A stretch of DNA of 40,004 nucleotides from a virus (Duplodnaviria; Heunggongvirae; Uroviricota; Caudoviricetes), in the IMG/VR virus record IMGVR_UViG_2645727669_000017; one strand, 5' to 3'. Numbering within the stretch: position 1 is the first letter of the stretch; the number at the start of each line of letters is the position of its first letter. The notes beneath the pieces are model-generated. The model saw only the letters and a program-made list of their open reading frames with translations, ran no database searches and was not told the DNA's origin. This document shows positions 4,937 through 11,276 of the stretch, piece after piece. The position numbers and the translations under genes are program-made.

Positions 4937-5550
4937 CCTTCACAGTTGTAATCACTACAGCCTTCAAAATCATATGGGTTGTACTGCCAGGTGATTTTTC
5001 CGCAATGCGGACAATTCCAACGCACCTTCCCGCTTCGCGACTTCTTTCTTCTGTTCTGCTTTTTCAACCAGTCAGGCATGACCAAACCTGCGCCCTGAAC
5101 CATTGTTCTGCGGTTAAAGTTATTGATATTGAACGTCCGGCGCTTTGCTGAATCAGCAATGGAAAATGGCAACCAAACTATTCCTGGTTCGTTTTTGTTG
5201 GCGACGCTAAAGATGGTCGCTTTACTGAAGTCATCTGTTGGCAATCCACCGTGTTGAAGCCAGTAAACATCGTTGCCGTTCCAGCTACTTTTTTTGTAGG
5301 CCACATACGCAGTGCAATCTGGCTCAATCAGGTTTTCTGTAGGGATGTACTGGTAATCAACGTGCCACACAGCCATTGCATCCACGCTATCAGCGCAAAC
5401 AGGCTGATCGATATCTCGACCACAATTCCAGGCTTTTTGGGCTTCTTCCAGCGTGTAAACATGAGCGCGATCGATATTAGAACTGTAACCATTGCCGTTA
5501 TGGCAATGGAATGAAGCGTTATTACCCACAGTTTCACGCAAGCACATCAT
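4924..5550 (-). CDS. Hypothetical early protein with C-terminal Cys-rich zinc-ribbon-like motif
   Basis: ORF 4924..5601; an internal Met (MMCLRE) gives a start that does not overlap the upstream gene; C-terminal CPHCGKITW...CSDYNC. Confidence 0.45.
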   Translation of the reverse strand: MMCLRETVGNNASFHCHNGNGYSSNIDRAHVYTLEEAQKAWNCGRDIDQPVCADSVDAMAVWHVDYQYIPTENLIEPDCTAYVAYKKSSWNGNDVYWLQHGGLPTDDFSKATIFSVANKNEPGIVWLPFSIADSAKRRTFNINNFNRRTMVQGAGLVMPDWLKKQNRRKKSRSGKVRWNCPHCGKITWQYNPYDFEGCSDYNCEGWRE

Positions 5551-6442: not shown

Positions 6443-6569
6443 TTTGTTCTCCACGTATATGCGCTGCACCGCGCTGAATTCTGGTAAAAGGAAGCCCTCA
6501 CCATCCGGCGATTATTGAGTTAATTACGTTTCCATAAATGCCCCCGCAGGGGCATTTGCAGTAATGAAA

Positions 6570-7394
6570 TCAGGCGGTGAAAGTACCAATAAAGGTTTCT
6601 ACTTTGCTGTCTTTGAATTTCTCAACAAGCAGATCACGAAATTCGTTAGCCATTTCTTCCTGCACTGCTTCCAGCTGAATAATGCGCAGAACCAGTACAG
6701 GACGATCGCCAGTGATAATGCTGAGGCGTAATTTAAATGGACGTTCTTTCAGACCTTCAAACGGAACGCATTTAAATTCAAATGCCACTGGCATAATATC
6801 TTTGGTCTTCGCTTCGACAGACTCCATCAGGGAGCGTTTGCCGCTGAAGTCATTATCTTCAAAATCAGCGGTCTGGTTTGCTTCAATCGTGATTTTACGG
6901 ACAGCCGCAGCCGCTTTTGTTGCCTGAATAGCGTCACCATTAGCATCAAAGCCCACAAGGTAGTCGGCCCAGTCTTCAATCCATTCTGCCAGTGACTTCT
7001 GGGAGTTACGCTCGCCATTAACAGACAACAGAGCAGAAAACGGTGCTGTCTTTTTTAGCTTGAGAGTGGCGGTGTTATCTGCGTGACCTGGTTCATCAAT
7101 AGTACCCAGGTTAAGCACACTGACGGCACGCATATTATCGGCATCGATAAAGCAGCGGGTGCCTTCATCTGCAAGATCTTTAGAATAACGGGTAAAGTCA
7201 TCGATGCTGGCAGTGGAAAGCGCACCACGGAAACGGAAACGATTTAAATTAAATTTTTCCAGATCATGAATGCGGAAATTCTCAGGCAATGCCACAGCAT
7301 CGGCACCAATCTTACTGATAATTTCATTAACACCCTGAGCAGAAATAAGGGCATGGATTTGATTAATTGCGGTTGCGTCTAAGTTCTGAGACAT
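6570..7394 (-). CDS. yfdQ: DUF2303-like early protein (YfdQ-like)
   Basis: 274-aa ORF in an operon with the HD phosphohydrolase; length and context fit my recollection of the CPS-53 yfdP-Q-R-S arrangement. Confidence 0.5.
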
Positions 7395-7458
7395 AATAAG
7401 TCCTCACTATATAAAGATATTCAGTGATGAGATAAATAATCAGTTTATTAATAACGTA

Positions 7459-7821
7459 TTAATGACCTGCTGCGCGGAGTTTTCCGTCAGGTTCACCGGC
7501 AAGAGTCAGTAATTGTCCCTGGTCTTCCTGCAGAATAGTCAGGCGACCACCGCGATTGACATACATCGGCGTTTCGGTGGTGTCTTCTTCGGAAATTTTC
7601 CCGCGGTTAGTCGGGCGAACATATGAGAGTTTGTGTTTGATTTTCACACGGTTCTCATCAAATGGTTCGATTTCCAGGTTGAGTGAGACCTTACCTTTGG
7701 TTTTCGTGTTCATCACACCTGAAGCGACTTCACTGAGAACTGCGCCGATTTTGGTTTCAAATACGCCGCCGTCCAGCTCCCCGATAAATGCCTGCACATC
7801 AGTACTGCGTTCGCTAGCCAT
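7459..7821 (-). CDS. yfdP: Hypothetical early protein (YfdP-like), first gene of the leftward early operon
   Basis: 120-aa product from internal ATG (MASERSTDV) preceded by GAGGAG RBS; the longer track ORF (to 8052) runs into a structured non-coding leader. Confidence 0.5.
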   Translation of the reverse strand: MASERSTDVQAFIGELDGGVFETKIGAVLSEVASGVMNTKTKGKVSLNLEIEPFDENRVKIKHKLSYVRPTNRGKISEEDTTETPMYVNRGGRLTILQEDQGQLLTLAGEPDGKLRAAGH

Positions 7822-7869
7822 TTTGCTGCTCCTCATCATATCGACCCTGCAAGGTCGGTTGGTTTCTCC

Positions 7870-7957
7870 ACAAAACAGAGAAGAACACCTGCGGTGGCAG
7901 CCGCCCGGGTGGATTGGGTTATGAGCCCGTCGTCCGGTGATGCTCTTCTCTGTTTTG
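7870..7957 (-). ncRNA. Long imperfect hairpin (15-bp arms) in the untranslated leader of the leftward early operon; candidate structured regulatory RNA
   Basis: ACAAAACAGAGAAGA (7870-7884) is the exact reverse complement of TCTTCTCTGTTTTGT (7943-7957); ~58-nt GC-rich interior with further complementarity. Confidence 0.35.
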
Positions 7958-8429
7958 TAAAAAGAGCGGTACCAGCCGGAAGCAAGTGTACAAACTGGTA
8001 CCGCCAAAGCAGTGGCTGTTGTGGTGGGCTTGTCACTTAAGCGTATGGTCAACCTGACAACCCGGTGTCCTCAACGGGGAAGGAATAACCCCGCCATACT
8101 TACCGCCGCGCCATTTCGCGGATTACCACAACGCTGAGAGCACTTAGCCAGTTACGGCACCACACTTTGTCGCGGTTCCATAAATGCCCTCATCGTTGCA
8201 CCCTGGTCTCTTCCCAGGCGTCAAACCGAATCGCCACGCTGGTTAGGCGTCTTATCAGCATCCTCATTGACTTGCACATTCCGGCTACCTGGTTTGTTTG
8301 CCCGAGCAAGGAGTGGATTGTCCCCTTTAACGTCCCCAGACCGCTAACGACGCATGTGCCATACGCCGTGTTACAACCAAATTTTGTTAGTACCTTGTTT
8401 GTAGGTCTGGAAAGAAAGATAAAATGAAG

Positions 8430-8468
8430 TTGCGCATTATGCAAGTGTTTTTATTGCGAGATATGCAA
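8430..8468 (-). promoter_or_regulatory. oL/pL-like region: two operators of form TTGC-N7-GCAA overlapping a leftward sigma70-like promoter
   Basis: TTGCGCATTATGCAA (8430-8444) and TTGCGAGATATGCAA (8454-8468); on the minus strand TTGCAT and CATAAT-like hexamers about 17 nt apart. Confidence 0.45.
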
Positions 8469-8524
8469 TTTGGTGGGTAATGAAAAGCCACCTTCTGGTG
8501 GCTAATTGATGTTGAGGTAGGGGG

Positions 8525-9217
8525 TTAATTGTGTCGCTTAAGGGTTTGTGACTGACTGATTAAGACCTTTCCAAAGACCATAAACCGATGTTCGTTTTCG
8601 CTGGTAATTCCCCATTCGCGGTAAATCTGATTATCAGAAATTACCAGCAGTTTATCAGGTATCATTTGCAGTCGTTTGACGTAAATTTTATCATCAAAAC
8701 CAAATACATATATACCATCCCCATCAAACTGATTGATACTGATATCAACGAAGATGAGATCTCCTGGCTCAATGGTTGGACACATACTGTCCCCACGAAC
8801 GTTGATAACTTTAATGTGATTTGCTGGTCGTCCACCAAACATCGATACAGCATTATCAGTTCTGTATTCAATGGCATGAATCACATCAATGACATCACCG
8901 CCCTGGATAAGGCCATTTCCCGCACTGGCACTGACATCCAGCATTTCAATACGGAATACATCCTTCACCTGCGCAACATCCTCACTAATACTGTTTTTAC
9001 ATACAGTATTACTTTTGAGGTCTGAGGTAAAGAGATCAGCAATATCAACACCTAAGCTCCTGGCAATATTACTCAGGGCTTGTTCAGTGAATTGTTTCTG
9101 CTTACCTGTTTCGAGGCGCGAGATATTCGCCGCATCCACTCCTATTGCTTCAGCGAGATCGGCGATTTTCATGTTCTTCGCCTGGCGAAGTTGTCTGACT
9201 CGATTTCCTATGTTCAT
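8525..9217 (-). CDS. CI-like prophage repressor (XRE HTH + S24 LexA-type autopeptidase domain)
   Basis: 230-aa ORF; N-terminal HTH (RVRQLRQAKNMKIADLAEAIGVDAANISRLETGK); C-terminal S24 signature (GDSMCPTI...KRL); divergent from the cro-like gene. Confidence 0.9.
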   Translation of the reverse strand: MNIGNRVRQLRQAKNMKIADLAEAIGVDAANISRLETGKQKQFTEQALSNIARSLGVDIADLFTSDLKSNTVCKNSISEDVAQVKDVFRIEMLDVSASAGNGLIQGGDVIDVIHAIEYRTDNAVSMFGGRPANHIKVINVRGDSMCPTIEPGDLIFVDISINQFDGDGIYVFGFDDKIYVKRLQMIPDKLLVISDNQIYREWGITSENEHRFMVFGKVLISQSQTLKRHN

Positions 9218-9237
9218 GCGTTTATTACATTTCTTTA

Positions 9238-9300
9238 TTGCGCGTTAAGCAAATCAACTTGCGCAAAATATTTGCGTGAAATAATATGCTCATCACGCAA
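9238..9300. promoter_or_regulatory. oR region with pR/pRM: operator TTGCGCGTTAAGCAA, palindrome TTGCGCAA and inverted repeat TTGCGTGA...TCACGCAA
   Basis: Same half-site (TTGC/GCAA) as the oL sites; putative pR -35 TTGCGC (9259-9264) and -10 TAATAT (9282-9287), 17-nt spacer, upstream of cro RBS GGAGG. Confidence 0.5.
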
Positions 9301-9314
9301 TATGTGGAGGTTAT

Positions 9315-9575
9315 ATGCAATCACCATTACGGAATGTGCGTAAGGCGCACGGATTTACTTTGCAGCATGTTGCTGCGGGCGTTCAGGTCAATCCAGCGAC
9401 GCTGAGTCGTATTGAAAGACTGGAACAAATTCCATCTATCGAGCTTGCAGAACGTCTGGCCAATTTTTTTAAGGGAGAAATCAGCGAAATGCAGATTCTC
9501 TATCCTGCACGCTTTCAATCTAGTCAAAACCGGAATGAGTTAAAACCACAGGAACAGGAGGTAAGCCGTGGGTAA
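9315..9575 (+). CDS. Cro-like HTH regulator
   Basis: 86-aa ORF with XRE-type HTH (FTLQHVAAGVQVNPATLSRIER); transcribed divergently from the repressor off the oR region. Confidence 0.75.
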   Translation: MQSPLRNVRKAHGFTLQHVAAGVQVNPATLSRIERLEQIPSIELAERLANFFKGEISEMQILYPARFQSSQNRNELKPQEQEVSRG

Positions 9576-10119
9576 GCATCACTGGAAAGTGGAAAAACAG
9601 CCTGAGTGGTACGTGAAAGCTGTCAGAAAAACTATCGCGGTGTTGCCGGGGGGTTACGCTGAAGCTGCTGAGTGGCTGGATGTAACAGAGAACGCTTTAT
9701 TCAACCGCCTTCGTGCCGATGGCGATCAGTTTTTTCCGTTGGGATGGGCAATGGTTTTACAGCGTGCGGCTGGTACTCACCACATTGCGGATGCTGTCGC
9801 ACAGTCTGCTGGTGGGGTGTTTGTATCACTTCCAGAAATTGAGGAAGTAGAGAACGCCGATATAAACCAGCGCCTGCTGGAAGTCATCGAACAGATCGGG
9901 AGTTACTCAAAGCAGATTCGTTCGGCAATCGAAGATGGGGTAGTGGAGCCACACGAGCAGACAGCAATTAATGATGAGTTGTATCTGTCAATTTCGAAGC
10001 TCCAGGAGCATGCAGCACTGGTCTACAAAATCTTCTGCGCTCCAGAAAAGAGTAACGCCCGCGAGTGTGCAGCTCCGGGCGTCGTGGCGTTTTGTGTCTG
10101 TGGAGAAACTAACGCATGA
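9568..10119 (+). CDS. CII-like / YdaT-like phage regulatory protein
   Basis: 183-aa ORF with GTG start immediately downstream of cro, overlapping it; assignment by position and size only. Confidence 0.45.
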   Translation: MGKHHWKVEKQPEWYVKAVRKTIAVLPGGYAEAAEWLDVTENALFNRLRADGDQFFPLGWAMVLQRAAGTHHIADAVAQSAGGVFVSLPEIEEVENADINQRLLEVIEQIGSYSKQIRSAIEDGVVEPHEQTAINDELYLSISKLQEHAALVYKIFCAPEKSNARECAAPGVVAFCVCGETNA

Positions 10120-10444
10120 ACAGTTTAACGGCAAATAACCGTTTGTCGCAACAGCTGGTGGTCAGTGTCGCTGCACACCTGTTGTTACGGCATGAATGCA
10201 GATTACCAAATCACCTGGCTGTAAGTAACCACAGAGAACTTTACCTGACTGTGGGGGGCGAGTTGTGCAGGAACTTAACCGCTGGTTTCGTGACGGAAGA
10301 GGACTTTATGTTCATGTTATTCGTTGGGAGCCAGAAACACAGCGCGTTATCTATCTTCGCAAAGACTACCCGCATGAGTGCTTTAGTCCTTTGTGGAAAT
10401 TCAGGCGTGATTTTGTTGAGTGTGAAGGACCACCAGCATATTGA
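10116..10444 (+). pseudogene. Small gene apparently split by a frameshift at a G6 tract (10253-10258)
   Basis: The frame from ATG 10116 (MNSLTANNRLSQQ...LYLTVGG) and a second open frame (RVVQELNRWFRDGRGLYVHVIRWEPETQRVIYLRKDYPHECFSPLWKFRRDFVECEGPPAY-stop at 10444) meet at GTGGGGGGCG; together ~108 aa. Confidence 0.3.
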
Positions 10445-10718
10445 TTCTGCAATTCCGGGACGTTACACTGTTCAGGCACCTTATAAAGCGGGTGCCGGGA
10501 TTGGCGTCCTGAAATTGTCAACGGCGATGTATGACGCGCCAGCGTCTTTTTTATCGTCCGCATTTGCTCACATCCAGATTATGGTGGGCTGGGCGGGGGC
10601 ACCGAAAGGTGCGCCGGTCTCCGTTGACGCCGGTTACGCCAACCCCGTCCAGTTCACCACCAGTGAAATTGGCGTTTCCGGTGGTGGAAGTTTTTCACTG
10701 TCAACGGAGGCTGCCATC

Positions 10719-11276
10719 ATGGCTACGATCCAAGCCCTCACTCAACCTGAAATCACCATTGACAACGGCCAGGCCGTTACCACTTCTTTGGCTGTTGCCA
10801 ACTTCTTCTCCAAGCGTCACGACGATGTGCTGAAAAAGATCCGCACTCTGGATTGTTCCCCTGAGTTTTGTGCCCGCAATTTTGCGGAGACATCGATTTC
10901 GGTAAATCAACCGAACGGTGGTACACGCAAGCTCCCTTGCTATCAAATCACACGAGACGGTTTTGCGTTTCTTGCTATGGGTTTCACGGGTAAACGTGCT
11001 GCCCGGTTCAAAGAGGCATACATCAATGCCTTTAACCAGATGGAAAAACTGCTTTCAAAGCCATCCACGCTGAGCGATGCCGCAGATAACGCCAGCGTGC
11101 TTTACTCCCACCTGTCGGTAATCCACAAGGTCTGGCTGCAGCAGCTTTATCCTATGTTGGCAAAAGCTGAATCTCCGCTGGCTGTTAGCTTATATGATTA
11201 TATTAATGATGCTTCGGCGCTGGCCTGCCTCATAAATTTGTCGCTGAACCCTTCAGAGGTAAGGGGGCGCAAATGA
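10719..11276 (+). CDS. Rha-family phage regulatory protein
   Basis: Conserved Rha-like N-terminus (ITIDNGQAVTTSLAVANFFSKRHDDVLKKIRTL) starts at internal ATG 10719 with GGAGG RBS; the 386-aa track ORF 10116..11276 is judged composite. Confidence 0.6.
   Translation: MATIQALTQPEITIDNGQAVTTSLAVANFFSKRHDDVLKKIRTLDCSPEFCARNFAETSISVNQPNGGTRKLPCYQITRDGFAFLAMGFTGKRAARFKEAYINAFNQMEKLLSKPSTLSDAADNASVLYSHLSVIHKVWLQQLYPMLAKAESPLAVSLYDYINDASALACLINLSLNPSEVRGRK

Follow-up and report, generated by a model that had tools for sequence, protein, structure and literature searches.

The TTGC-N7-GCAA sites found on either side of the cI gene of this phage are, with a probability of roughly 0.85, the operators of CI and Cro in a lambdoid immunity region of the mEp460/SfII type. 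This view draws on the motif itself and on its enrichment, on the positions that it keeps across loci, on the conserved promoter-like elements that it overlaps and on the way in which it changes with the repressor allele, all of which are direct observations in the 40,004-nucleotide stretch of viral DNA analysed (the window) and in related loci. The details of the switch mechanism are held with less confidence than this general claim. The features of the region are as follows.

8389-9543, unstranded: immunity cassette comprising pL/oL, the cI terminator, cI, oR and most of cro, delimited by comparison with phage Ayreon
8416-8444, minus strand: predicted pL, with -35 TTGCAT (8444-8439), a 17-nt spacer, -10 TATCTT (8421-8416) and a start at about 8409
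8430-8444, unstranded: predicted proximal oL operator, TTGCGCATTATGCAA, an exact site of 21.1 bits whose position is kept in relatives
8454-8468, unstranded: predicted distal oL operator, TTGCGAGATATGCAA, an exact site of 19.4 bits, 24 bp from the proximal site
8486-8503, minus strand: intrinsic terminator after cI, AGCCACC-AGAA-GGTGGCT then TTTTCATT, from a terminator scan
8525-9217, minus strand: cI repressor, 230 aa, with an N-terminal Cro/C1-type helix-turn-helix (HTH) and a C-terminal Peptidase_S24 domain
9224-9252, minus strand: predicted pRM, with -35 TTGCTT (9252-9247), a 17-nt spacer, -10 TGTAAT (9229-9224) and a start at the A of the cI ATG
9238-9252, unstranded: predicted oR3-like operator, TTGCGCGTTAAGCAA, over the pRM -35 and spacer, an exact site of 16.4 bits
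9259-9273, plus strand: invariant TTGCGCAA (9259-9266) with the pR -35 TTGCGC, plus a degenerate second half
9259-9287, plus strand: predicted pR, with -35 TTGCGC (9259-9264), a 17-nt spacer, -10 TAATAT (9282-9287) and a start at about 9294
9286-9300, unstranded: predicted oR1-like operator, ATGCTCATCACGCAA, one mismatch, 14.9 bits
9315-9575, plus strand: cro-like gene, 86 aa, Pfam HTH_3 (3.1e-10), with a GGAGG ribosome-binding site before it
9336-9350, unstranded: degenerate palindrome GTGCGTAAGGCGCAC in cro codons 8-12, two mismatches, 4.3 bits

The cI product matches PHROG 4 (transcriptional repressor) and, in Pfam, Peptidase_S24 (5.9e-19) together with HTH_3, HTH_26 and HTH_31. In an alignment of CI with five relatives no variation is seen at the Ala99-Gly100 cleavage site or in the Ser144/Lys181 dyad. 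The cro-like gene is divergent from cI and lies 97 bp from the cI start, and the homologous gene is annotated as Cro in PhiR47_1, SfII and mEp460. These data confirm the pair of divergent repressor and cro-like genes described in the initial annotation. An open reading frame of the CII(CP76)/YmfL family follows at 9568-10119. Behind cI, a GC-rich hairpin with a T-run occupies the same place in relatives as the terminator does here. BLASTP of the CI N-terminus against Cro gave no alignment; the two recognition helices share the pattern xSR(L/I)E, judged by eye only. No close solved structure was found for CI or Cro, the matches being limited to distant HTH and UmuD structures, and the best PDB sequence matches of the repressor include an engineered 434-type domain (dh434, E ~2e-4). 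As all of these structures are distant, no structural inference on DNA recognition is drawn from them.

The 15-bp form was reported in the initial annotation twice near the leftward promoter and once at oR, and exact matches are present at all three places. In the whole window TTGC-N7-GCAA occurs exactly six times, compared with 1.48 expected from shuffled sequences. Three of the exact sites lie within 222 bp, the sum of the two intergenic stretches around cI, for which the Poisson P is ~9e-8. It could be argued that a short degenerate pattern has clustered by chance in AT-rich intergenic DNA, a view favoured by the finding that 1 of 100 shuffles also gave six exact matches, and by the absence of enrichment across the window when one mismatch is allowed (26 matches versus 28.8 expected). 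The latter result means that the signal resides in the local cluster of sites rather than in the bare pattern. A symmetrised weight matrix was built from 69 sites, all from relatives, with the window's own sites left out, and returned a refined motif of TTGC(G/A)(T/C/A)WWW(A/G/T)(C/T)GCA(A/T). As the sites in the matrix were picked by their TTGC/GCAA ends, only its inner columns and the positions of the sites constitute independent evidence. The four highest matrix scores in the window are those of the two oL sites, the oR3-like site and the oR1-like site, in that order. The fifth-best score, 10.7 bits, falls within the range obtained with shuffled windows, where the top score is 11.5 +/- 2.9 on average. 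The remaining exact matches, at 5145 (7.2 bits) and at 5492 and 20963 (both below 4.3 bits), were discarded as chance occurrences on the basis of these low scores. The further copies that had been described as degenerate do include an additional oR copy; the site at 9286-9300 is, in contrast to that description, a second good site. The TTGCGCAA palindrome also mentioned there is present at 9259-9266. No other repeated palindrome was found in the two intergenic regions around cI.

The comparative data are drawn from 26 related loci, whose CI proteins are 40-96% identical to that of this phage, found by searching the proteins of annotated phages and those of one genome per species. The hosts of these prophages span 15 or more enterobacterial genera, including Shigella, Citrobacter, Salmonella, Klebsiella, Kluyvera, Pseudescherichia, Buttiauxella, Trabulsiella, Pantoea, Mixta, Rosenbergiella, Dryocola, Proteus, Serratia and Phaseolibacter. 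Most were fetched with peptide patterns, one of the two (ETGKQK) lying in the recognition helix, and the sample is therefore biased towards relatives with the same DNA specificity. The inner bases of the operator sites vary among the 26 relatives, but the positions of the sites are fixed. Relative to the cI ATG, 23 loci have a site starting at -35, and the other three have it at -34, -36 and, where a leader is inserted, -78. On the cI-sense strand TTGCG-N6-GCAT lies 48 bp upstream of the oR3-like site in all relatives, with a nearly invariant TTGCGCAA between the oR3-like and oR1-like sites. At oL, two sites 22-24 bp apart are located 42-131 nt after the cI stop, just beyond the terminator hairpin; the second, 22-24 bp upstream, was found in most relatives. 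When 27 loci were stacked by position, and not by motif, high information was evident only at TTGCG..GCAT, TTGCGCAA, TTGC..GCAA, TGTAAT and the ATG. In the 25 relatives' loci that were scanned, the 270 bp of regulatory DNA carry TTGC-N7-GCAW at 64 times the density found elsewhere (92 sites in 7.4 kb of regulatory sequence versus 16 in the remaining 82.7 kb). Against chance clustering stand the Poisson estimate, the identical positions of the sites in 26 diverged loci and the top four matrix scores in the window, and we regard that explanation as already refuted by the comparative data.

The sites coincide with predicted promoters. In pL and pRM the predicted -35 is the TTGCnn half of a full 15-bp site, while the -35 of pR lies within TTGCGCAA. 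The oR1-like site extends over the predicted transcription start of pR and the final 2 nt of its -10. A pL-type TTGCnn-N17-TAnnnT is present in the same register in 20 of 21 relatives, along with the pair of oL sites. The pR-type TTGCGC-N17-TAA(T/C)AT is likewise kept, as either TAATAT or TAACAT, and the position-anchored stack of 27 loci shows conservation of the pRM TGTAAT and of its spacing. The overlap with promoter-like hexamers put forward in the initial annotation agrees with the conserved TTGCnn-N17-TAnnnT arrangement. None of pL, pR and pRM was called by a generic sigma-70 scan, as their -35 hexamers agree with TTGACA at only three of six positions. The -10 of pRM ends 6 nt ahead of the cI ATG and there is no Shine-Dalgarno sequence, from which the cI mRNA is predicted to be leaderless. 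The outer base of the 9286-9300 site is always the non-consensus GCAT because the pR -10 hexamer overlaps the site. The scan's only match between cI and cro, on the minus strand at 9308-9281, was considered as pRM and rejected: it is poorly conserved, its -35 is the cro ribosome-binding site read on the other strand, and CI bound at 9286-9300 would block it. In the Rosenbergiella prophages L101 and L103 cI is preceded by an inserted 43-nt leader that has its own ribosome-binding site and a GTG start, and is consequently not leaderless in these loci; operator and promoter keep their mutual spacing there, 43 nt farther from the cI start.

The close association of the motif with these hexamers raises the question of whether the TTGC blocks are mere -35 elements (TTGnnn) of packed divergent promoters, their palindromy being incidental and the repressor binding elsewhere. 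Consistent with such a role, three TTGC halves are -35 hexamers positioned 17 nt from conserved -10-like hexamers. A promoter function does not, however, account for the GCAA half 7 nt away, which has no promoter role and is equally conserved, nor for two sites that are not -35 elements, the distal one at oL and the one that covers the pR start. Furthermore, the two intergenic regions lack any other repeated palindrome to which a repressor might bind, and the motif is lost together with the repressor allele (see below) although the same promoter functions must be retained. An explanation through -35 elements only is therefore judged very unlikely.

The organization of oR between the two well-defined sites is less clear than that of oL. 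In about half of the relatives the second half of the element at 9259-9273 differs from TTGC by no more than one base; in this phage it is unrecognisable. It is possible that the element is a weak middle operator (oR2-like) whose occupancy depends on cooperativity. With a middle site reduced to one half in this phage, an oR of three sites as in lambda cannot be taken as established. One such arrangement, centred at 9269 (CGCAAAATATTTGCG), was rejected as its everted palindrome is not kept in relatives. TTGC-N6-TTGC repeats of the lambda CII type were also dismissed, as their spacing is wrong and the cII-like gene is of the 186 CP76/YmfL family. Within cro, at the position of the degenerate palindrome listed above, 50-51 bp from the oR1-like site, 18 of 26 relatives carry a site with no more than one mismatch, eight of them exact; examples are loci L087 (1368-1382) and L092 (1367-1381). 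The consistent use of the rare codons TTG and TCG at this palindrome suggests selection at the DNA level.

A comparison with the hetero-immune phage Ayreon defines an exchangeable cassette. Ayreon matches the window at 6501-8388 (97.8%) and 9544-10743 (93%) and is unrelated in between. The left end of the cassette (8389-9543) is ~20 nt past the predicted pL start, and its right end is close to that of cro. The cI and cro products of Ayreon are different proteins from those of this phage, and no TTGC-N7-GCAA was found in its 5.7-kb locus, which at the equivalent positions displays TGTACC-N5-GGTACA and GATACA-N3-TGTATC palindromes. The operator palindrome thus changes together with the repressor. 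The cdtI and Stx2c phages also share the flanks, as judged by a pattern of 59% coverage. The initial annotation held that these sites define the immunity specificity of the prophage. The disappearance of the sites with the cI/cro alleles in Ayreon agrees with this proposal, while the outer TTGC/GCAA bases mark an immunity family rather than a private specificity, since they are common to a whole CI clade across the Enterobacterales and not confined to this phage. Within CI, the repressors of Turner and SE1 provide a useful contrast: they are 42-44% identical to CI and have other HTH sequences, and no site of the TTGC-N7-GCAA type was found in their loci. The motif therefore travels with the N-terminal HTH (NISRLETGKQK).

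These observations also bear on which protein occupies the sites. The main binder might not be CI but Cro alone, the CII/YmfL-like protein or a host factor. Cro is itself an HTH_3 protein encoded in the swapped cassette, and co-variation with the cassette cannot separate it from CI. Arguing for CI, the presence of the motif tracks the CI N-terminal HTH across genera. The gene for the CII-like protein is not part of the swapped cassette; Ayreon has it too and yet lacks the motif. A host factor would not be expected to change along with the cassette. To our knowledge, in every CI/Cro switch that has been studied (lambda, 434 and P22) the two proteins share their operators, which also counts against a different main binder. 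We consider such a binder improbable, albeit slightly less so than the reading of the sites as promoter elements only.

In the preferred reading, in which the sites serve both CI and Cro, the binding protein, affinity order, cooperativity and transcription start points are inferred. CI, an HTH/S24 repressor cleavable in the SOS response, and Cro would each bind the 15-bp operators as dimers, recognising the consensus TTGC(G/A)-N5-(C/T)GCA(A/T), and the left half of the operator would double as the -35 hexamer (TTGCnn) of each early promoter. CI at 8430-8444 would occlude the -35 of pL, and the site 24 bp upstream (8454-8468) could allow cooperative binding. At the other end of the gene, CI at 9286-9300 would block pR at the end of its -10 and at the start point, with TTGCGCAA supplying the pR -35 and one weak half-operator, while CI at 9238-9252, over the pRM -35, would hold down the leaderless transcript from which it is itself made. 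Self-cleavage of CI at Ala99-Gly100, stimulated by RecA during the SOS response, would free pL and pR, after which Cro would be predicted to bind the same sites.

The transcript that pL is predicted to produce has a 590-nt non-coding leader extending to the first leftward gene (7821), which folds better than shuffled sequences (z = -4.0) and is a mosaic of conserved blocks. One of these, on the minus strand at 8199-8372, just outside the immunity cassette, is a conserved structured RNA. In 21 diverse copies its four helices are 98.3% paired and nine pairs show compensatory changes; none of 500 shuffles reached its score, and controls in which the alignment was slid were 29-45% paired. The element recurs in unrelated phages, always co-oriented with transcription. 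It is located between tRNA-Ile/tciC and ban in P1, P7 and SJ46, and upstream of tRNA-Arg(UCU) in epsilon15-like phages (phiV10-type, SPN1S and BUCT711), and more than 200 copies were fetched from IMG/VR. In two contigs ~12 nt separate the -10 of a TTGC-type pL from the start of the RNA. The element gave no match to any Rfam 15 family even at E<=10, contains no tRNA that could be found, has no copy found in HK022, and was not found as a sequence in any paper in the literature.

The rest of the leader (7822-8198, minus strand) consists of other conserved blocks. One, at ~8010-8132, is common to P7, where it lies just downstream of Op(ban), and to Stx2a PPompW phages. A terminator-like hairpin, GCGGTACCAG..CTGGTACCGC followed by TCTTTTT, is present at ~7964-8003, and a long hairpin at ~7870-7950. 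The segment 7962-8027 matches the published 'sRNA-17' alignment of E. coli K1 (PMC7719688). In six relatives (L002, which is SfII, L084, L087, L092, L095 and L097) another leader element, ..GCGAACAGGCAGGACGCCCACGAAGTAGCCGCCGGTGGCGTATGAATGACCGG.., is found 20-90 nt downstream of pL, where it replaces the structured RNA. This element is common to prophages of Salmonella, E. coli, Kluyvera, Buttiauxella and Pantoea.

The SfII/SfV/SfIV group has no reported N gene (PMC3851460). It is conceivable, if rather doubtful, that in such N-less phages CI and the TTGC-N7-GCAA operators gate a pL transcript whose first conserved element, the unclassified structured RNA, acts in cis, by analogy with put of HK022, to carry transcription through the terminator-like hairpins at ~7964-8003 and ~7870-7950 that precede the early-left genes. 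The RNA exists and is conserved; antitermination is a role that we purely infer for it. If true, early gene control would be of a repressor-plus-RNA rather than a repressor-plus-N kind.

To the right of cro, the open reading frame at 10116-11276, annotated as Rha in relatives, contains two plus-strand RNA genes, isrK (Rfam, 62 bits; 10476-10552) and C4 antisense RNA (81 bits; 10577-10664). A GGAGG precedes the ATG at 10719 with which the Rha domain proper begins, and a Pfam Phage_ASH match (residues 117-212 of the frame) coincides with the RNA genes. This segment is probably an RNA-controlled antirepressor module in which the long open reading frame has been mis-called, and it may provide a second layer of immunity.

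The operator and promoter map presented here is testable and applies to an immunity type common in E. coli, Shigella (serotype-converting SfII) and Stx2a prophages, for which it predicts which prophages should cross-repress one another. A single recognition code, TTGC-N7-GCAA together with the NISRLETGKQK helix, extends across prophages from no fewer than 15 genera of enterobacteria and bears on superinfection exclusion and on co-induction among resident prophages. No published description of TTGC-N7-GCAA operators was found in the literature on the motif, on SfV/SfII/ST64B or on mEp460, and the records of the phages with the same immunity annotate only cI, cro and the terminator, with no operators or promoters. 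In concept, the region adds nothing beyond the paradigm of lambda, 434 and P22.

Its features are those of an immunity region: a repressor with HTH and S24 domains, a divergent cro, and the same operator repeated in the cI-cro intergenic region and past the 3' end of cI. The resemblance to the CI/Cro switch of phage lambda (oL, oR, pL, pR and pRM) extends to the divergent cI and cro, the S24 autocleavage repressor, palindromic operators over pR, pRM and pL (putative here), adjacent oL sites 24 bp apart, a leaderless cI mRNA (predicted here) and an exchangeable imm cassette. The differences are also evident. The operator is 15 bp (TTGC-N7-GCAA) compared with 17 bp in lambda, the HTH is of the Xre/434 type (HTH_3), unlike that of lambda, oL has two clear sites rather than three, the middle oR site is degenerate, and oL directly follows the cI terminator without an intervening rexAB. 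The repressors of 434 and P22 (c2) belong to the same HTH class, and there too each half-site has four conserved outer base pairs around a variable AT-rich centre. The 434 operator is ACAA-N6-TTGT, and the half-site sequence and spacing in this phage (N7, 15 bp) differ from those of both 434 and P22.

The comparison with known lambdoid immunity types that the initial annotation had called for places the region in the mEp460/SfII type. At the DNA level PhiR47_1, PhiR40_1 and PhiR55_1 are 98.1% identical over the full query, mEp460 and phiSTEC1575-Stx2k ~98%, Stx2a_1447 97.1% and SfII 90%. The cI-cro-cII-like block is alike, at 97-98% DNA identity, in mEp460, PhiR47_1/PhiR40_1, Stx2a_1447/WGPS2 and 1720a-02, with no shift in the positions of the operator sites, and the CI of PhiR40_1 is 100% identical to that of this phage. 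In Shigella phage SfII the block is 90% identical, CI is 96% identical and the sites lie at the same offsets. There is no substantive difference between phages of the mEp460/SfII type and the phage described here, and judged by its sequence the region is a standard CI/Cro switch of that immunity type.
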